A stretch of DNA of 64,000 bases from a virus. Its lineage: Duplodnaviria; Heunggongvirae; Uroviricota; Caudoviricetes. The stretch lies in the IMG/VR virus record IMGVR_UViG_2778260992_000001; one strand, written 5' to 3'. Positions 2,614 to 19,240 of this stretch are shown here, one piece after another (position 1 is the stretch's first letter; each line of letters starts with the position of its first letter). The notes under the pieces are model-generated. The model was given only the letters and a program-made list of their open reading frames with translations. It ran no database searches and was not told the DNA's origin. The translations under genes were made by a program, and so were the position numbers.

Positions 2614-3207
2614 ATGATTGCAGCCGAAAAAATCAAACAGCGAAAGCGCGACAACTCTCTTCGTGACCTCTGGAGAACACCTGATTGGCTGTTTTCTGCC
2701 ATTCAACGTTATCTTGGGGTGACATTTGATGTTGACGTTGCCTGCAACAAGGACAATGCAAAGCTGCCTAATTTCATAGGCGTTGAGCGTGATGCTTTGA
2801 AATCTGAATGGGGACAGCCAGGTACAATTGCCTTCCTCAATCCACCCTACTCCAAAATCTCCCCCTGGATTGATGCTGCTATACGTGAGCAGGCTCGCGG
2901 AGTTACAACAGTGATGCTAATTCCTCAATCCCTCGATACAAAGTGGTATGAGCGTGCAACAGAGTATGCGAATGAGACGATTATTCTGTCTGGTGGCCGC
3001 GTAGCGTTTGTCGAGCCTGACGTCAATTTGGGTCAGGTAGAAGTAAACATCAACCCCGGTGGCAGTATGCTCGTTGTTTTTCGAGGATTCTGTCAGGACG
3101 CTGGGCACTCTATAAGCAAGATCCCTTTGGACGTAATGAAAAGTCTGGGAGGGTATGATCCTGCGAATGTGGTCAGGAAAAAAAGACCATCAAAGAAGGC
3201 TGCTTAG
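2614..3207 (+). CDS. phage-type DNA N6-adenine methyltransferase (Dam family)
   Basis: translation contains WRTPDWLF, FDVDVAC, FLNPPYS motifs typical of small phage Dam MTases; ATG 2614 preferred over upstream TTG 2602. Confidence 0.7.
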   Translation: MIAAEKIKQRKRDNSLRDLWRTPDWLFSAIQRYLGVTFDVDVACNKDNAKLPNFIGVERDALKSEWGQPGTIAFLNPPYSKISPWIDAAIREQARGVTTVMLIPQSLDTKWYERATEYANETIILSGGRVAFVEPDVNLGQVEVNINPGGSMLVVFRGFCQDAGHSISKIPLDVMKSLGGYDPANVVRKKRPSKKAA

Positions 3208-6452: not shown

Positions 6453-7022
6453 ATGTGCAAGAAATGCAAAGCGATAGCTGATGAACAAAACGCCTTATTC
6501 GAAGAAATGGATGCTAATGAACTGGTCAAAATGTTAGCCATTCTTCGAGGAATAGAAGACGTTTCCATATTTGAGAGAGTGGTTACAGCACTTAATTTTG
6601 AGTCCACCTTTGAAGAGCCAACTCAGGTTGTAGCTTTAGCACATCATTTCGGTGTTCATTATCTTGCTGAAAAAGAGCGCGCTGATAAGTTGCAGGCGAC
6701 TTTGGATATGGTGAGCGAGACTCAACGAACTGATGACACTAACAAGAGTGAGGCGATTATTGCCAGCAAAGATCGTGAAATTGCTGGGCTTAAATCCTCT
6801 CTAACGATGTTGATGTCTGCGTTCAATCTTATGTCTTCTCAGGCGGGTTATAAAATGCCATCACTAAACAGCGATGATCCGATGGCCGTTCGTCAGCTTT
6901 TGGGAGCAATGGCCGACCAACTCGACGACACAAAGAGTCGGCTTGAAGACATGATGCGTGAGTTAAGCCATCGACATAACCTCGCAACACAGCCACACAA
7001 AGCCTTTCAAAGCTCTAATTGA
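6453..7022 (+). CDS. hypothetical protein
   Basis: 189-aa ORF downstream of class-1 palindrome. Confidence 0.5.
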   Translation: MCKKCKAIADEQNALFEEMDANELVKMLAILRGIEDVSIFERVVTALNFESTFEEPTQVVALAHHFGVHYLAEKERADKLQATLDMVSETQRTDDTNKSEAIIASKDREIAGLKSSLTMLMSAFNLMSSQAGYKMPSLNSDDPMAVRQLLGAMADQLDDTKSRLEDMMRELSHRHNLATQPHKAFQSSN

Positions 7023-7077
7023 TCTGATATGGCCGCATGATCGGCCATATTGTGTTGATAAAAAACAAGGATGAAAA

Positions 7078-7359
7078 ATGGCATACGGTACAGGGATTTA
7101 CAACAATAAAGGAATTAACGTTACTGGCTTCCTTACTCCTATTTTTTTTCTTGATCGATTTACTGCGTCATCAGGCTCTAAGACGTACTCCAATCCGCCA
7201 CCGGGTAAATCGCTACATGCCGTGTGGTCATTGATGCCTCTTAACAACGACAACTACATTAATTTACCTGTTCCAACAGTTACTATTAATGGAAATACGG
7301 TTAGTTGGTCAAATTTATATACGGGGCTTGGTTCTTACATATACACATACTGGGGATAA
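7078..7359 (+). CDS. hypothetical protein (N/Y/G/T-rich)
   Basis: 93-aa ORF in AT-rich segment. Confidence 0.35.
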   Translation: MAYGTGIYNNKGINVTGFLTPIFFLDRFTASSGSKTYSNPPPGKSLHAVWSLMPLNNDNYINLPVPTVTINGNTVSWSNLYTGLGSYIYTYWG

Positions 7360-7361
7360 TT

Positions 7362-7976
7362 ATGTTCGGGATGTCAATTACTCAATCAGATGGAAGTTTG
7401 TGGATGAGTCCAGAATTTACTCCGCAAAATCTGATTAATAAAGGGACAATGTCTACATCTAAAGGTTCTGTTTTTCAAACATCAATCCCATCAAACAAAT
7501 CATGCTTTTTCTTCATAAAAAGCAGTAATAAGGCGAACATGATGTTTATTCATGAGCATAGTAACGGATACAATGCTCTCAGATTGCATCAGGTAAATGG
7601 TAGCCCCGGAACAATAACAGTTTATGCTTTTTCTGATATGGTGTTACCACATTCTGGCTATGGCATTGCCATGTATAACAGCGCAGGCGCAATGGTGTAT
7701 CACGGTGAGATGATGCCCCTTGATGCGAAACTTATCACTATTTCGGACCCTCAATTTACCATAGATGTGGGGTATCCGTGTGCGGTAATGCCTGCTATGG
7801 TTGGGGTTTATAACTATAGACGAACCGATTACGACAGACCTGTCTATGTAACTATGACCGGTGCAACTGGAAACCAAGTATATAACGGTCAATGGTATTC
7901 CGGTAATGTCACATGGGATATTAAGAAGATTTATACAAACAAAATCCTGGTTATAAATACCTCAAAGTATGATTAG
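7362..7976 (+). CDS. hypothetical protein (N/Y/G/T-rich, probably beta-rich)
   Basis: ATG 7362 directly after upstream stop; 204 aa. Confidence 0.4.
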   Translation: MFGMSITQSDGSLWMSPEFTPQNLINKGTMSTSKGSVFQTSIPSNKSCFFFIKSSNKANMMFIHEHSNGYNALRLHQVNGSPGTITVYAFSDMVLPHSGYGIAMYNSAGAMVYHGEMMPLDAKLITISDPQFTIDVGYPCAVMPAMVGVYNYRRTDYDRPVYVTMTGATGNQVYNGQWYSGNVTWDIKKIYTNKILVINTSKYD

Positions 7977-8079
7977 CAAATACCTTTATTTAAAGGATTG
8001 CCTGTTAATTTCTATTTAGCACCTTTTCATTTTTGAAATAATTGCACCATTAAACAAATCTTTTCTTAATGGTGCAATT

Positions 8080-9765
8080 ATGAATACAGCCCTTTCCATC
8101 ATCGACGATGCCAACTCAAACACTGCTATCGATTATCGTCAGGAAATGAACGTCATCCACGAAATTGTGGCCGAGTGCGAGAAGGAGATCGCCTTCATGT
8201 ATCAGGTTCACGACTTCGTTTATGGAGACGAACGCCACAACATGATTAATCGCCTGCTGCAACTGAACCACCGACCAGATGAAGAACGCTCACGTTTGAA
8301 TCGAGCTTGGCTGGATAAAGTCGATCTGGAATGGGTGAAACAGAATATTTGGGCCGAGTACTGGAGGAAGGTCACGGATATGACTAACGTTCTGCTGATC
8401 ATGCCAGCTTCCCGTCGCGACGAGTGGCGTGAGCAGTTTATCGAGGGTAAGCAGGAAGTCATCAAAACTGACAGAACCGGCTATCAGATGAAGGTAAAAG
8501 AGTTCGTTGGTGTACCGGAGTTCAAAGCAGAAACGGTCATACCCACGATGCTTAATTTGCTGAATGACAGGCACAAATATCTCTCTGAGCGCGTGTATGG
8601 CTTGTTTAAGGCGCTGAGTCCTGCGCACAAGACAAATAAGACAAACGGTTTCAGCGAACGTCTGATAATCGCTGACTGCATTTCTGATTTCTGGCGGGAC
8701 AGCGTTAGCGTGAACTATCGCAAAGAGGACTACATCGACGATCTGCGTGTCTTGCTTCATTTCTTCGCGCACAAAGAATTTATTACCATCAACCGCACTG
8801 CTGAGGTGCTATCAGCTGCGTATAGGGCAAACGACTGCCAGACCGGTGACTGGATGAACGTCGATGGAAATCTGATGCGCGTGAAGATGTTCAAGAACGG
8901 CAACGTTCACTTTGAAATACATCCTGACGTGGCCTGGAAGTTGAATGAGGTGCTGGCTTACAGTATGCCTGCTGCAATCCCCGCGCCATGCCGAACTGCG
9001 CCAAAAACACGGGCACCAAAGCAGTTCGGTTTAATCCAGAAGACGATCTCCGTGCCGGTTCGCACTGCGCTTCGTGACGGGCGATTGAGCAAAGACAAAG
9101 GCGTATGGTACTTCTCTGATTCAGCTCTCCAGAAGTCGCAGGTGGAAGAGCTTGAGCGCACACTGAGCTTCATTGGCGGCGTGCAGGAGAAAAAGCACTG
9201 GCAGTTCCCGTATGAGATCGGCCATACGCTAAATACGATTGTGGCTACCGGATTAATACCGGATACAAAATCACACCAGTTCTACCCTACCCCACGCTTG
9301 ATTGCTGAGTACGTTGCCAGAGCCACTGAATTGAAGCCTGGTGAGAAGCTGCTGGAGCCTCAAGCCGGACGTGGGGATCTTCTGGCCTATATTAACGCCG
9401 ATCTGGAAGATGTTACCTGCATAGAAATCGCACCTCTCTTCGCTGATATCCTGCGTGGAAAAGGGTATACGAACACGATTTGCTGCGACTTCATAAAGTG
9501 GTCTGAGGACAACGCAGGTTATCAGTTCGACAAAATCGTTATGAACCCGCCGTACTCGCTTGGTCGTCATAGAGAGCACACGATGGCTGCGCTGGGGCAT
9601 CTGAAAGTCGGCGGGCGTCTTGTAGCAGTATTGCCGGGCACTGCGCCAATACTGGACTGGATGACGATGGATAATTACGTTTATGCCAGAGGGAAGTCGT
9701 TTACCAACGAGTTTGAAGATACCGGGATCACAGTCAGCGTATACGTTTTCAAACGCGTTAAATGA
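8080..9765 (+). CDS. putative DNA N6-adenine methyltransferase with large N-terminal domain of unknown function
   Basis: C-terminal region has SAM-binding-like EPQAGRGDL and catalytic NPPY (MNPPYS); N-terminal ~380 aa unassigned; perfect hairpin immediately upstream of ATG. Confidence 0.65.
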   Translation: MNTALSIIDDANSNTAIDYRQEMNVIHEIVAECEKEIAFMYQVHDFVYGDERHNMINRLLQLNHRPDEERSRLNRAWLDKVDLEWVKQNIWAEYWRKVTDMTNVLLIMPASRRDEWREQFIEGKQEVIKTDRTGYQMKVKEFVGVPEFKAETVIPTMLNLLNDRHKYLSERVYGLFKALSPAHKTNKTNGFSERLIIADCISDFWRDSVSVNYRKEDYIDDLRVLLHFFAHKEFITINRTAEVLSAAYRANDCQTGDWMNVDGNLMRVKMFKNGNVHFEIHPDVAWKLNEVLAYSMPAAIPAPCRTAPKTRAPKQFGLIQKTISVPVRTALRDGRLSKDKGVWYFSDSALQKSQVEELERTLSFIGGVQEKKHWQFPYEIGHTLNTIVATGLIPDTKSHQFYPTPRLIAEYVARATELKPGEKLLEPQAGRGDLLAYINADLEDVTCIEIAPLFADILRGKGYTNTICCDFIKWSEDNAGYQFDKIVMNPPYSLGRHREHTMAALGHLKVGGRLVAVLPGTAPILDWMTMDNYVYARGKSFTNEFEDTGITVSVYVFKRVK

Positions 9766-9766
9766 T

Positions 9767-9785
9767 AGGTAAATACTTACTTAAT
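9767..9785. promoter_or_regulatory. palindromic site, class 2 (TAGGTAAGTA..TACTTACCTA)
   Basis: taggtaaatacttacttaa between 8080..9765 and 9827..10531. Confidence 0.45.
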
Positions 9786-9826
9786 TTGTGTAAGAATGTA
9801 GTAACTAAACGAGAAGAGAAAAACAC

Positions 9827-10531
9827 ATGAGCAACCTCCAGTTAGAGCATTTTAACGTCACAGGCCGTTCTGATTTTCCTTTCAAGTTTACATTGAAAGG
9901 TTATGCAGAGGATGCGGTAGGCCAGATCATTATTGATAAAGGCATCGTTAAGTTTGAGGGGGATTTTGATGAATCCGCGAAAACATTCATAGACTTCGTT
10001 GCCAAACGTTGGAGCGAGCAATGGAAAAACCTGGAAAAGCGCGCCAATGAGTTTGATCGGTTCATGGATGCAATGGATACAGCAAAAGAGGCTCTTGATG
10101 CCGGGACTCCGTTAGATCTGGAGTCACTTTTCAACGGCGAAGTGGCCTCTGCGATGTTTGCCACCATGTTCGCGGGTGAGTTCGTCCGCAGCGGTGCCAA
10201 AAACTACCTTGAGCTGGATTACAACGTCCCTGCAATTGGCGATTTCGTCGTTACCATCCAACGCAAAGAAGGTAAGACGCCAGGTGAACGCGTCGCAGAG
10301 CTTGAGGCCGTTGTGGATCAGCGTAACGGAGAGTGTGACCGTTTGATCAACGAGCTTCATGCACTTCGGGAAGAAAGAATATGTGCGGGTAGCAAGACAC
10401 GTAATGCAGCGGATATCTACTTCCAGTTAGTTGAGGAATGCCAGATTCCACCAGGTGGCTCTCTTGTCGATTACGTCAGACATTTAATGGCGGAAGTTAA
10501 CTCCAGCCATAAAGATGGTGAGGTGCGCTGA
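9827..10531 (+). CDS. hypothetical protein
   Basis: 234-aa ORF, RBS gagaag. Confidence 0.5.
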   Translation: MSNLQLEHFNVTGRSDFPFKFTLKGYAEDAVGQIIIDKGIVKFEGDFDESAKTFIDFVAKRWSEQWKNLEKRANEFDRFMDAMDTAKEALDAGTPLDLESLFNGEVASAMFATMFAGEFVRSGAKNYLELDYNVPAIGDFVVTIQRKEGKTPGERVAELEAVVDQRNGECDRLINELHALREERICAGSKTRNAADIYFQLVEECQIPPGGSLVDYVRHLMAEVNSSHKDGEVR

Positions 10532-10911
10532 TGTTTGGCATTGACGCACAGCGTATAGCCGCTTTTGCAAAAAGCCCTCTTGATAATCCCTTGTCTCGTA
10601 GTGAGCAAATGGAGCTGGCAAGGCTTTTTCTTCACATTCAAAAACAGGCAGACATTTTCAATAACATGCCTAATCAACCTATTCTGGATGGTCACATCCA
10701 GATGGTCATTAACAGTCATGAGAAAGGCTGGGCTGCAATCGTCCCCTGCACAATTACATACAAGTTGGCGAAAGAGGTTCAAGAGTTTCGAAAAGCCAGT
10801 GTCGAATCGGAGTCTACCAAAGCCGCAATAAACACTCTTATTCGCATGGGGTTCACATGGACCGGTGGAGCCTACTGGCAAGCACCTCACCCCATTTTAT
10901 CCGGCAATTAG
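10531..10911 (+). CDS. hypothetical protein
   Basis: 126-aa ORF overlapping upstream stop (ATGA coupling). Confidence 0.45.
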   Translation: MFGIDAQRIAAFAKSPLDNPLSRSEQMELARLFLHIQKQADIFNNMPNQPILDGHIQMVINSHEKGWAAIVPCTITYKLAKEVQEFRKASVESESTKAAINTLIRMGFTWTGGAYWQAPHPILSGN

Positions 10912-10941
10912 ACGCTACAAATCCTTCGGCATGAATAAATA

Positions 10942-10962
10942 AAGGCCATAAGTTGTGGCCTT
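10942..10962 (+). terminator. terminator-like hairpin
   Basis: aaggccataagttgtggcctt followed by A/T-rich run. Confidence 0.45.
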
Positions 10963-11030
10963 AAATAAATTGTTTTCTACATTTTCTTATTTGTGAAAAT
11001 AACCACAACTAGAAAACAACGGAGTTAAGA

Positions 11031-11672
11031 ATGTCTAGTATTTCCGAAGCTCATATGTTCGCCGCTGGCGCTCATGGTGGCGTTGGTCAGAAAAGAAAAT
11101 ATACCGGCGAAGACTACATCAACCACCCGGTTGCTGTCCGAGAGATTGTTGCATTGCATGACGGAACCGTGGAGATGCAAATCGCGGCGCTTCTGCATGA
11201 TGTGGTCGAAGACACCCATGTAACCATAGAGATGGTTCGTGATCACTTCGGTGAGCGCGTAGCTGAAATGGTTCAGGCTCTGACCAACATTGCAAGGCCA
11301 GAAGACGGCAATCGAATACAGCGTTTCATCATCAATGTCCGGGAGCTGGAGCAAAATCTCGACATGCAGACGCGCATGATCAAGCTGGCTGACCTGCTCG
11401 ACAATACCTCTTCTATCGTGAGTCGCGATCCCGAGTTTTCAGCTGTCTACCTCGCAGAGAAAGAACTGATGCTGGACGTACTCTTTCACGGCAAAGAGAT
11501 TGGTGCCAATGCTGATGTTGTCGAGTACATGGAGAGGATAGGTATAGAACACCCGTTGCTATTAAGCGCAATGGCGAAAGTCACTGAAGGTATTGCGCTT
11601 CTGAAACCGGTACACATCAAACGTTATGAAAAACACAAATCGCTGATCTGGAGCGCGTGGGAGGCTGCATGA
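11031..11672 (+). CDS. HD-domain phosphohydrolase, RelA/SpoT-type (putative small alarmone (p)ppGpp hydrolase)
   Basis: HD signature LLHDVVEDT plus upstream H..H metal-binding context; 213 aa, no synthetase domain. Confidence 0.6.
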   Translation: MSSISEAHMFAAGAHGGVGQKRKYTGEDYINHPVAVREIVALHDGTVEMQIAALLHDVVEDTHVTIEMVRDHFGERVAEMVQALTNIARPEDGNRIQRFIINVRELEQNLDMQTRMIKLADLLDNTSSIVSRDPEFSAVYLAEKELMLDVLFHGKEIGANADVVEYMERIGIEHPLLLSAMAKVTEGIALLKPVHIKRYEKHKSLIWSAWEAA

Positions 11673-15948: not shown

Positions 15949-17049
15949 TCACACTGCGCGGAATGCGATTTCGCCAGGTATTACTTCACCTTGCCAATAC
16001 ATTTGGGCAGCAACGCGATCTGCGAGGTCACGATAAATAGCCGTAAATTCGCTATCTGGACGACTAATAACGGTTGGTGTTCCGTTATCCAGATCTTCAC
16101 GAAGAGAGATATGAAGTGGCATTTGGCCTAACAACTGCGTGTTGTATTTCTCGGCCAGTTTCTGTGCGCCACCGGTGCCAAAAATTGGCTCGTGATGACC
16201 GCAGTTACTGCAAATATGCACACTCATGTTTTCAACGATACCCAGTACCGGCACTTCGACTTTTTCGAACATCACAATGCCTTTCTTCGCATCGATCAGC
16301 GCGATGTCTTGCGGCGTAGTTACCACAACCGCACCAGTTACAGGAATGTTCTGCGCCAGCGTCAACTGAATATCACCAGTGCCCGGCGGCATATCGAGAA
16401 CGAGATAGTCCAGATCAGGCCACAGTGTTTCCTGCAACATCTGCATCAGCGCCTTGCTGGCCATCGGTCCACGCCACACCATTGCATTGTCGTCGGTGAC
16501 CAGATAACCAATAGAGTTGGTTGCCAGGCCATGAGACATGATAGGTGCCATGTGAGTACCGTCAGGTGAGGTTGGACGTTGGTTTTCCGAGCCCAGCATG
16601 GTTGGAATTGATGGACCATAGATATCGGCATCCAAAATACCAACTTTCGCACCTTCAGCAGCCAACGCCAGTGCCAGGTTTACCGCCGTGGAGGATTTAC
16701 CCACGCCGCCCTTGCCTGAGCTGACGGCGATAATGTTCTTCACGCCATTAATGCCTGGTTGGTTTTTGACGCGCTTAAGCGTGGCAATGTTGTACGACAG
16801 CTTCCAGTCAATAGCCTTTGCGCCAGTGATACGGAGCAGATCACCACTACATTGCTCTTTCAGGTCTTCAAAAGGCTTATTCCACACGAAAGGCATGATT
16901 AGTTCGACATGCAGTGTGTCATCCATCAACGCAACATGGTGTAACGCTTTAAGCGTAGTCAGGTTGTGTTTCAGGGTTGGGTGCTGAAAATTAGCCAGCG
17001 TACCGGCTACCATTGCTCTCAGGGCATCCGGCGATTTGGACTCGCTCAT
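15949..17049 (-). CDS. apbC: iron-sulfur cluster carrier ATPase ApbC/Mrp
   Basis: 366-aa translation with Mrp/NBP35 P-loop SSGKGGVGKS and CxxC (CSNCGHH); recognised as enterobacterial Mrp from recall. Confidence 0.9.
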   Translation of the reverse strand: MSESKSPDALRAMVAGTLANFQHPTLKHNLTTLKALHHVALMDDTLHVELIMPFVWNKPFEDLKEQCSGDLLRITGAKAIDWKLSYNIATLKRVKNQPGINGVKNIIAVSSGKGGVGKSSTAVNLALALAAEGAKVGILDADIYGPSIPTMLGSENQRPTSPDGTHMAPIMSHGLATNSIGYLVTDDNAMVWRGPMASKALMQMLQETLWPDLDYLVLDMPPGTGDIQLTLAQNIPVTGAVVVTTPQDIALIDAKKGIVMFEKVEVPVLGIVENMSVHICSNCGHHEPIFGTGGAQKLAEKYNTQLLGQMPLHISLREDLDNGTPTVISRPDSEFTAIYRDLADRVAAQMYWQGEVIPGEIAFRAV

Positions 17050-17206
17050 CCCGTCTCCTTTATTTTAATTTGCGCAATTGTCGCCTTGTAGTGTACTCCA
17101 GCTACGACATTTAATCATTTATGAGAAATGCTGTTATCACATGGCAGACATAAGGCCATTTTGTTACTATCAAGCCCCTTTTCACTACAAAGAAGTAATG
17201 CCTACT

Positions 17207-19240
17207 ATGACCCAAGTCGCGAAGAAAATTCTGGTGACGTGCGCGCTGCCGTACGCTAACGGCTCAATCCACCTCGGCCATATGCTGGAGCACATCCAGG
17301 CTGATGTCTGGGTTCGTTACCAGCGAATGCGCGGCCACGAGGTTAATTTCATCTGTGCCGACGATGCCCACGGTACGCCGATCATGCTGAAAGCACAGCA
17401 GCTTGGTATCACACCGGAACAGATGATTGGCGAAATGAGTCAGGAACACCAGACTGATTTTGCAGGCTTTAACATCAGCTATGACAACTATCACTCGACG
17501 CACAGCGAAGAGAACCGTCAGTTGTCCGAGCTTATCTATACTCGCCTGAAAGAGAACGGTTTTATTAAAAACCGCACCATCTCTCAGCTGTACGATCCGG
17601 AAAAAGGCATGTTCCTGCCGGACCGTTTTGTGAAAGGCACCTGCCCGAAATGTAAAGCACCGGATCAATACGGCGATAACTGTGAAGTCTGCGGCGCTAC
17701 TTACAGCCCGACTGAACTGATCGAGCCGAAATCGGTAGTTTCTGGTGCTACGCCGGTAATGCGTGATTCCGAACACTTCTTCTTTGATCTGCCTTCTTTC
17801 AGCGAAATGTTGCAGGCATGGACCCGCAGCGGTGCGTTGCAGGAGCAGGTGGCAAACAAAATGCAGGAGTGGTTTGAATCTGGCCTGCAACAGTGGGATA
17901 TCTCCCGCGATGCGCCGTACTTCGGTTTTGAAATTCCGAACGCACCGGGCAAATATTTCTACGTCTGGCTGGACGCGCCGATTGGCTACATGGGTTCCTT
18001 CAAGAATCTGTGCGACAAACGCGGCGACACTACCAGCTTCGACGAATACTGGAAGAAAGACTCCACCGCCGAGCTGTACCACTTCATCGGTAAAGATATC
18101 GTTTACTTCCACAGCCTGTTCTGGCCTGCCATGCTGGAAGGCAGCAATTTCCGCAAGCCGACCAACCTGTTTGTTCATGGCTATGTGACGGTGAACGGTG
18201 CGAAGATGTCCAAGTCTCGCGGCACCTTTATTAAAGCCAGCACCTGGCTGAATCATTTTGACGCTGACAGCCTGCGTTACTACTACACTGCGAAACTCTC
18301 TTCGCGCATTGATGATATCGATCTCAACCTGGAGGATTTCGTTCAGCGCGTGAATGCCGATATCGTGAACAAAGTGGTTAACCTGGCCTCCCGTAATGCA
18401 GGCTTTATCAACAAGCGTTTTGACGGCGTGCTGGCAAGCGAACTGGCTGACCCGCAACTGTACAAAACCTTTACTGATGCTGCTGAAGTGATTGGTGAAG
18501 CATGGGAAAGCCGCGAATTTGGTAAAGCGATTCGTGAAATCATGGCGCTGGCTGATCTGGCTAACCGCTATGTCGATGAACAGGCTCCGTGGGTGGTGGC
18601 GAAGCAGGAAGGGCGCGATGCCGATCTGCAGGCGATTTGCTCTATGGGCATTAACCTGTTCCGCGTGCTGATGACGTACCTGAAACCGGTACTGCCGAAA
18701 CTGACTGAACGTGCAGAAGCATTCCTGAATACAGAACTGACCTGGGATGGTATCCAGCAACCGCTGCTGGGCCATAAAGTGAATCCGTTCAAGGCACTGT
18801 ATAACCGCATCGACATGAAGCAGGTTGAAGCACTGGTGGAAGCATCCAAAGAGGAAGTAAAAGCCGCTGCCGCGCCAGTAACTGGCCCACTGGCAGATGA
18901 TCCGATTCAGGAAACCATCACCTTTGACGACTTCGCCAAAGTTGACCTGCGCGTGGCTCTGATTGAAAACGCGGAGTTTGTCGAAGGTTCTGACAAACTG
19001 CTTCGCCTGACGCTGGATCTCGGTGGCGAAAAACGTAATGTCTTCTCCGGCATTCGTTCCGCTTATCCAGATCCACAGGCACTGATTGGTCGTCACACCA
19101 TTATGGTGGCCAACCTGGCTCCGCGTAAAATGCGCTTCGGTATCTCCGAAGGCATGGTGATGGCTGCTGGCCCCGGCGGGAAAGATATCTTCCTGTTAAG
19201 CCCGGATGCTGGTGCTAAACCAGGCCACCAGGTTAAGTAA
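17207..19240 (+). CDS. metG: methionyl-tRNA synthetase
   Basis: translation from [29 protein letters not shown] (HIGH) through KMSKS and C-terminal tRNA-binding domain; appears near-identical to E. coli MetG as recalled; divergent from apbC as in the host chromosome. Confidence 0.95.

Follow-up and report, generated by a model that had tools for sequence, protein, structure and literature searches.

We analysed a 64,000-nucleotide stretch of viral DNA (IMG/VR record IMGVR_UViG_2778260992_000001; hereafter the window), which is an Escherichia coli phage-plasmid of the SSU5/pHCM2-like type, and in it the gene at 8080..9765 (+ strand), whose 561-amino-acid product joins a DUF4942 domain to a C-terminal methyltransferase (MTase) core. 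With a little more than even confidence, we read this protein as an orphan N6-adenine DNA MTase of the gamma class that protects the DNA of the element, its DUF4942 part probably engaging the DNA. The sequence family is already represented in Pfam, the PHROGs and the NCBI names, so no new gene was found. It is the architecture that is uncharacterised: a TaqI-like core that lacks a target-recognition domain (TRD) follows a conserved domain without structural relatives.

The catalytic core

The coding sequence, taken from the list of open reading frames (ORFs), starts with ATG, ends with a stop codon at 9763-9765 and is matched from residue 1 to residue 561 by PHROG 6263 ("DNA methyltransferase"; profile positions 1-548 of 548, E 8.1e-300). 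An earlier note, made from the letters of the window, had reported this ORF and had confined its MTase motifs to the C-terminal third; all of them indeed lie in the last 166 residues. This segment (residues 396-561; 9265..9762, + strand) was identified by profile comparison, Foldseek and PADLOC as a minimal gamma-class N6-adenine MTase catalytic core. QFYPTP (motif X, or TP motif), which was absent from the earlier list of motifs, occupies residues 400-405 (9277-9294), EPQAGRG (motif I) residues 426-432 (9355-9375) and NPPY (motif IV) residues 489-492 (9544-9555), about 60 residues after motif I. The order TP-helix, motif I, motif IV is the gamma arrangement, and the earlier assignment to the DNA MTases, which a different motif order could have overturned, survives this check.

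Conservation was examined in three alignments, consisting of 28 full-length homologues, 135 divergent representatives (about 30% identity) and 28 diverse cores. Q400, Y402, P427, G430, N489 and P491 were invariant among both the full-length homologues and the cores, with a few of them graded at 90% or above among the representatives. P403, P405, A429, E449, F471, D484 and P490 were invariant among the 28 full-length homologues, and four of these (P403, P405, A429 and P490) were invariant or nearly so in every alignment. The acidic E449 and the DF pair at 470-471 form further motifs of the core. Since the catalytic residues are invariant, the enzyme looks active.

A profile built from the 28 cores found M.TaqI as its best match among PDB sequences (E 3.3e-7; profile positions 8-158 of 160), in an alignment that covers the whole catalytic domain of M.TaqI. 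The weaker matches, to KsgA, Erm, a site-specific adenine DNA MTase, METTL5 and HsdM, were all to N6-adenine enzymes. PADLOC models for a Type II MTase (1.9e-10) and for mad2 (2.6e-15) also matched the core. Foldseek comparison of the full-length model with the PDB returned only Rossmann-fold MTases, at query TM-scores of about 0.2-0.26, and the Pfam matches to the C-terminal part (N6_Mtase, RrnaAD and MTS) were all below threshold. The Pfam scan of the 561-residue protein gave no match to PF05869 or to the D12 class of Dam enzymes. We regard N6-adenine chemistry as very probable and DNA as the likely substrate. The protein ends with the core, at residue 561, and no TRD follows it; no hsdS-like gene was present among the annotated neighbours in the window or in the relatives inspected.

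The N-terminal part and DUF4942

Four segments precede the core. Residues 1-82 (8080..8325, + strand) form a variable, acidic, helical region (identity 0.28, isoelectric point (pI) about 5), in which the AlphaFold2 (AF2) model places helices at 19-62. Residues 83-298 (8326..8973, + strand) are the conserved and basic DUF4942 domain (PF13708), as delimited with Pfam and hhalign. A basic linker rich in proline, lysine and arginine follows at residues 299-325 (8974..9054, + strand; AIPAPCRTAPKTRAPKQF...), with conserved I300, P301, R305 and F316; the pI of the linker segment at residues 296-330 is 11.7. Residues 326-395 (9055..9264, + strand) form a small, variable alpha/beta subdomain according to the AF2 secondary structure (mean pairwise identity 0.30). 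The earlier note had left the N-terminal part unassigned. This was correct insofar as about 395 residues carry no MTase motif, but a catalogued domain, DUF4942, lies within them.

Pfam recognised DUF4942 at residues 140-295 (E 1.8e-20; 73.9 bits against a cut-off of 25), and all 31 diverse homologues scanned matched it as well. The boundaries of the domain were set by a stand-alone DUF4942 protein of 251 amino acids from Pseudoalteromonas phage PS_L5 (Pfam E 1.9e-46), to which hhalign aligned residues 83-298 with 99% probability. The AF2 model, computed from the alignment of 135 sequences, was confident (pLDDT 91.6, pTM 0.87) and showed a helical N-terminus, an alpha/beta core, the P- and K/R-rich linker and the small alpha/beta subdomain. 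The last of these carries a conserved GG(V) at 366-367 and, as predicted, does not look like a four-helix GxGU unit, the form of the LPD36 domain that directly precedes the MTase in DarB-like proteins. It also accompanies the core in another architecture, as phrog_9133 (a profile of 1259 amino acids) matched residues 328-560 (E 2.5e-50).

The two-part architecture is widespread. A search with residues 1-395 against 1.84 billion cluster representatives gave 612 clusters (50% identity) at E of 1e-3 or below, and almost all of the best 150 have lengths of 500-590 amino acids, indicating that they share it. In annotated phage genomes the N-terminal part was found in 42 records and the catalytic module in 232; the records with the N-terminal part belong to SSU5-like phage-plasmids and to phages of Pseudomonas, Aeromonas, Vibrio and Marinomonas.

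Ten residues (W95, L179, S180, H183, T185, N186, W258, H277, N289 and L292) were invariant in the 135 representatives. Among the 28 full-length homologues, residues 86-320 had a mean pairwise identity of 0.50-0.56, with 20-22% of the columns at least 90% conserved, and the corresponding values for the catalytic core were 0.49 and 21%. Residues 1-85 and 326-395 were variable (0.28-0.30). The DUF4942 segment is basic throughout the family (median pI 9.5; above 8 in 93% of members); the segments flanking DUF4942 and the core are acidic to neutral. Of the functions proposed earlier for the N-terminus, that of a TRD is weakened by a conservation equal to that of the core, by the ten invariant residues and by the occurrence of the domain on its own, and nothing was found in support of a sensor domain. 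Residues 326-395, together with the variable first 85 residues, are the better candidate for any specificity element.

Searches of PDB sequences with the N-terminal region, by single-sequence phmmer and by profile hmmsearch, returned noise only (E of 0.1 or higher). No solved structure resembling the N-terminal model was found by Foldseek of the full-length model or by the PDB profile searches, and the Pfam hmmscan of 31 diverse N-terminal sequences detected nothing consistent besides DUF4942. Comparison of the model with BFVD gave two uncharacterised phage proteins of 247-271 amino acids, and phrog_38825 (a profile of 299 amino acids) matched the DUF4942 domain. Sequence and predicted secondary structure had raised the possibility that conserved H, D, E and N residues form a PD-(D/E)xK or HNH site. 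This was set aside; it had no support from the fold, and stand-alone DUF4942 proteins do not retain H183.

Neighbours can be named for three such stand-alone genes. That of PS_L5 adjoins ssb and resolvase genes, and its product keeps neither S180 nor H183; a copy in Salmonella SPI-3 adjoins rhuM (PMC10893270); and orf56 (L0010) of the Shigella SRL island lies downstream of klcA/radC/cbtA-type genes (PMC6980539). In Salmonella Infantis SARB27 (locus L091, 5617-6591) the SPI-3 gene is split into two ORFs that cover Pfam positions 1-52 and 117-189, and from its sequence this copy appears to be a pseudogene in that strain.

The element and the surroundings of the gene

Positions 7000-11000 of the window are 100% identical to E. 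coli plasmid pG749_2 and 98% identical to phages Cyrano and CMS-2020a; over the gene itself, the identity to Salmonella phage SSU5 is about 89%. About 570 plasmid records match, nearly all of them non-mobilizable and about 105-115 kb in size, from Escherichia, Klebsiella, Enterobacter, Salmonella and Citrobacter. Elsewhere the window carries terminase, portal, capsid, tail and ParB genes as well as nrdAB, thyA and genes for dihydrofolate reductase, an exonuclease and Dam. The gene is the ortholog of SSU5_095 ("DNA methyltransferase" or "putative DNA modification methylase"), is annotated by NCBI in the identical DNA of pG749_2 as "DUF4942 domain-containing protein", and is located in the early arm of the phage-plasmid, which is devoted to replication and nucleotide metabolism.

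A separate small Dam had been reported in the earlier note and is present at 2614..3207 (+ strand). This ORF encodes a phage Dam-type N6-adenine MTase of 197 amino acids (PF05869, E 2.2e-38), annotated in pG749_2 as "phage N-6-adenine-methyltransferase". The element thus has two adenine MTases, as had been claimed, and they belong to different classes.

In the window, SSU5, Klebsiella pJN2-26 and Cyrano, the neighbours of the MTase gene encode small hypothetical, Ead/Ea22-like, Eaa-like and HD-domain proteins and vary between lineages. No nuclease was found among the neighbours in these four, and hence no cognate endonuclease of the kind that defines a Type II restriction-modification system. 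More distant homologues (33-38% identity) were found in a Variovorax lambdoid prophage, in an Enterobacterales prophage and on a plasmid-like contig. The Variovorax homologue lies in the early right arm, directly followed by an N6_N4 MTase gene that overlaps its stop codon. In the prophage of Enterobacterales bacterium 8AC the homologue is placed between an N6_N4 MTase gene upstream, a lambda-P-like gene and, downstream, a gene for a C5 MTase of 699 amino acids. The plasmid-like contig also encodes ParB and a D12 Dam, and in phage phiPSA1 a second MTase gene is close to the homologue. This pattern is one of an orphan phage MTase moving together with further orphan MTases. In the unrelated lambdoid prophages the DUF4942-MTase gene sits within small "MTase islands" (L005, 10001-12936; L007, 6948-14320).

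Away from the gene, at about 15950-19240, the window carries a divergent pair of apbC (mrp) and metG (methionyl-tRNA synthetase) genes beside an S24 peptidase gene. Both are ordinarily chromosomal housekeeping genes in E. coli. The module occurs at 95-99% identity in about 200 plasmids of the SSU5-like type, mostly from E. coli. Identity to pG749_2 falls to 98.6% in this stretch, and the window is therefore derived from a mosaic relative and not from that exact plasmid.

The leader hairpin

A perfect hairpin had been noted before the gene. It is real, and its stem is 16 bp long, exceeding the 13-bp arms that the eye picks out. The stem-loop (8038..8081, + strand; arms ATAATTGCACCATTAA / TTAATGGTGCAATTAT, loop of 12 nt) folds as RNA at -19.1 kcal/mol, compared to -6.4 ± 2.5 kcal/mol for shuffled sequences (z -5.2), and none of 200 shuffles was as stable. 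The stem is the second-longest short-range inverted repeat in the window. Its 3' arm holds the sole Shine-Dalgarno (SD)-like element, GGTG (8071-8074), located 5 bases upstream of the AUG, together with the first two bases of that codon (A and U, 8080-8081). The longest local inverted repeat (10960-11029; 33-nt arms, 73% complementary, 4-nt spacer) falls between genes, immediately ahead of the HD-domain gene (11031-11672).

Two other interpretations of the hairpin were discarded. It is not an intrinsic terminator, as no T-run follows it and the terminator scan made no call there, and the arm is not a repeated operator, as no exact match to it lies in the window outside the two arms of the hairpin itself. 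Near matches to the arm numbered 15, compared to a mean of 7.7, a count reached by 1 of 100 shuffles.

Relatives were compared at 76 SSU5-like IMG/VR loci, representing 43 distinct upstream sequences. Only one sub-lineage of E. coli has the 16-bp stem (15 loci, with free energies of -16.5 to -20.6 kcal/mol). In another E. coli sub-lineage, which encodes a 99% identical protein, the stem is 12 bp long (ATAATTACACCA / TGGTGTAATTAT) and shows a compensatory change from G-C to A-T. In one lineage at 80% identity, several positions have changed in a compensating manner (CATAATTAAACCA / TGGTTTGATTATG). C-to-T changes confined to the 5' arm occur in three variants and give G.U pairs, which an RNA stem tolerates but a DNA palindrome does not. 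SSU5-type loci retain just CACCA/TGGTG, a weaker complementarity that is widespread, and the Klebsiella lineage at 62-65% identity has a GAGGAG SD sequence and no stem. In an alignment of 35 sequences, 76.6% of the cells were paired, as opposed to 29-49% when the partner was slid.

A candidate extended -10 element, TGaAATAAT, was picked out by eye from the alignments at 8034..8042 (+ strand), overlapping the hairpin at its 5' end. Most SSU5-like lineages have a TGnGATAAT-like sequence here, with a GC-rich terminator just upstream of it in SSU5 and pJN2-26, and it looks like an extended -10 promoter; a promoter consensus scan that required both hexamers did not call it. If this element is real, transcripts reading through from upstream would be translationally blocked by the stem.

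Two ORFs (7078-7359 and 7305/7362-7976) lie directly upstream of the hairpin and have about 78% DNA identity to genes for "membrane associated" or "outer membrane" proteins of the siphophages JenP1, JenP2 and BRET. Both are absent at that position in SSU5 and pJN2-26, indicating a lineage-specific module inserted 5' of the MTase leader. Within the 3' arm, a mini-ORF of four codons (ATG GTG CAA TTA TGA, 8069-8083) has a stop codon that overlaps the MTase start (ATGA). The same arrangement is present in SSU5 (ATGGTGCAATCATGA) and pJN2-26 (ATGGTGAAATTATGA), although its retention may just mirror conservation of the ribosome-binding site.

Proposed function of the fusion protein and alternative explanations

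In the mechanism that we propose, the core would be a TaqI/EcoKI-like enzyme dependent on S-adenosylmethionine (SAM), with intact SAM-binding and catalytic motifs and without a TRD of its own. DUF4942, the basic linker and residues 326-395 would most likely keep the enzyme bound to nucleic acid and bring the core into position. The element's own DNA would then be methylated on top of the methylation contributed by the small Dam, and this would reduce restriction by new hosts and could double as an epigenetic mark for the element. In this E. coli lineage, the upstream CACCA-containing arm, by pairing with the SD-like GGUG and the AUG, would probably throttle translation. An anti-restriction or epigenetic role, suggested earlier, is plausible since the core is akin to DarB-like modules and the prophage homologues lie among orphan MTases without a nuclease. 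Whether anti-restriction is the main role we regard as evenly balanced, and the assignment of DUF4942 as the DNA-engaging part is tentative, at somewhat less than an even chance.

Several observations weigh against this proposal. Our search of the literature on DUF4942, on SSU5 and on pHCM2 together with methylase found no functional study of the family. No DNA-binding fold was recognised in the N-terminal part. DUF4942 is conserved as strongly as the core and occurs without any MTase, which is easier to reconcile with an autonomous function than with a classic specificity domain. In the profile search of the PDB, M.TaqI is directly followed by rRNA N6-methyladenine (m6A) enzymes (KsgA, Erm and METTL5, at 4e-6 and weaker), and the Foldseek matches are a mixture of RNA and DNA MTases. 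The perfect hairpin is missing from SSU5 and from pJN2-26, whose leaders fold no better than shuffled sequences, so it is not a conserved feature of the gene family. Covariation in the stem was marginal, with double changes in 3 pairs (7 cells) and the observed value reached by 24-32 of 500 column shuffles, and the support for a selected RNA structure is thus suggestive and not decisive. Finally, transcripts from the candidate -10 element, if it is real, would begin within the 5' arm and escape the stem.

DUF4942 might instead be an autonomous effector or partner-binding module, for example an anti-defence factor or an adaptor that connects to a component of the host or the replisome, in which case the fusion would tether an MTase of low specificity, devoid of a TRD, to the place where DUF4942 acts. 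By analogy, the closest case would be M.EcoGIX and DNA polymerase I, and M.EcoGIX sets a precedent for an orphan MTase that depends on a partner (PMC7736820). The stand-alone genes of PS_L5 (beside ssb and resolvase genes), SPI-3 (beside rhuM) and SRL (orf56) are consistent with such a module, as are phrog_38825, the two BFVD proteins of 247-271 amino acids and a conservation equal to that of the core, which includes the invariant polar residues S180, H183, T185, N186, H277 and N289. However, the searches, PDB profiles and Pfam scans among them, revealed no partner, no enzymatic fold and no known motif, the loss of S180 and H183 from the PS_L5 protein makes a shared catalytic site doubtful, and the basic charge equally fits simple binding of nucleic acid. 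We consider this explanation unlikely.

Methylation by the enzyme could, alternatively, serve mainly an epigenetic or regulatory purpose (replication, packaging or the choice between lysis and lysogeny) in place of anti-restriction, and the control by the hairpin would reflect this. In phage P1, Dam methylation controls packaging and replication. About 570 SSU5-like plasmids retain the gene alongside the Dam that they already have, it sits in the replication and nucleotide-metabolism arm, and in this lineage its ribosome-binding site is sequestered by a stem of -19 kcal/mol. On the other hand, the analysis identified no candidate sites as regulatory targets, the hairpin is specific to a lineage, and homologues are found in unrelated lambdoid prophages and in other phages, such as Pseudomonas phage Dolphis, where a common regulatory circuit is unlikely. 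A mainly regulatory role is thus rather improbable.

Modification of RNA (rRNA or tRNA N6-adenine) or of another non-DNA substrate, by which the element would alter host translation, is suggested by weak NCBIfam and PDB profile matches to KsgA/RsmA, Erm, METTL5, HemK and RsmC, by the tRNA m2G enzymes TrmN and Trm11 among the top Foldseek matches and by the missing DNA TRD, but it is very unlikely given that the best profile match is a DNA enzyme, M.TaqI, over the entire catalytic domain, that a QFYPTP helix followed by NPP(Y/F) is the signature of TaqI/EcoKI-like DNA adenine MTases (PMC5512222), that the two PADLOC models of Type II DNA MTases far outscore the NCBIfam RNA models (7e-4 or weaker) and that the homologues cluster with other DNA MTases in prophages.

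Significance

Phage-plasmids of the SSU5/pHCM2-like type, which spread resistance genes, are common in E. coli, Salmonella and Klebsiella (PMC9600943). Factors enabling them to establish in new hosts are of practical interest. The gene is conserved in about 570 plasmids, and its family comprises more than 600 clusters (50% identity) from phages and prophages of many Proteobacteria. An anti-restriction function, if real, would make the protein a determinant of host range, and its motif would explain unassigned m6A signals in the methylomes of carrier strains. DUF4942 is a well-defined and confidently modelled domain without a structural relative, and assigning its function would annotate thousands of genes. 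The general understanding of phage orphan MTases is unchanged by the finding and the family was already catalogued, which makes the interest modest.

Comparison with known systems

The core resembles M.TaqI in the succession of a TP-capped helix, motif I (ExxAGxG) and motif IV (NPPY) on a Rossmann MTase fold. M.TaqI, in contrast, has a C-terminal TRD of about 170 amino acids, whereas here about 395 residues precede the core, and no partner endonuclease accompanies the protein. The C-terminal TRD or separate specificity subunit typical of the TaqI and EcoKI enzymes was not found. The stand-alone DUF4942 proteins share the YW motif, KTN, DL, FKNGNxH and the equivalent of N289 with the fusion protein and likewise occur on phages and genomic islands, but they have no MTase domain, and S180 and H183 are not conserved in them. 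The phage Dam family (PF05869) similarly provides an orphan N6-adenine MTase with an NPPY-type motif; it is an unrelated family with a different arrangement of motifs.

M.EcoGIX and M.BceJIII, from plasmid leading regions, are orphan adenine MTases on mobile elements without a cognate nuclease, as is the protein described here. Their expression is tightly limited, and they have been demonstrated to shield their element against restriction as it enters (Fomenkov et al. 2020, PMC7736820). M.EcoGIX is a small enzyme of the beta class with a DPPY motif IV, is dependent on single strands and PolI, and acts in a SAY context (PMC7736820). Unlike these two, the protein of the phage-plasmid has the gamma order, NPPY and DUF4942, and no sequence relationship was seen. 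The label "YdiA" on one Salmonella Typhi cluster had prompted a comparison with M.EcoGIX; an identity of that type was rejected, as M.EcoGIX is a beta-class enzyme with DPPY.

DarB-like polyvalent proteins have a related core. Four PHROG profiles (phrog_15406, phrog_11358, phrog_10691 and phrog_5143), which represent phage proteins of 2.2-3.9 thousand amino acids, matched residues 396-526 with E values from 8e-20 to 6.5e-6, and in tblastn the core matched proteins with the annotation "DarB-like antirestriction" (about 31-34% identity). The fusion protein differs from them in having DUF4942 as the partner domain in place of a C-terminal SF2/SNF2 helicase (no helicase family matched its 561 residues), in that no LPD36-type helical GxGU domain was recognised, and in showing no sign of virion packaging or injection. 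The MTase module of the DarB type, named after DarB of phage P1, has been assigned to the TaqI/EcoKI-like gamma adenine MTases by its TP...NPP(Y/F) signature (Iyer et al. 2017, PMC5512222). What the fusion protein and the DarB-like module have in common is a gamma-class adenine MTase without its own TRD, borne by phages and plasmids.

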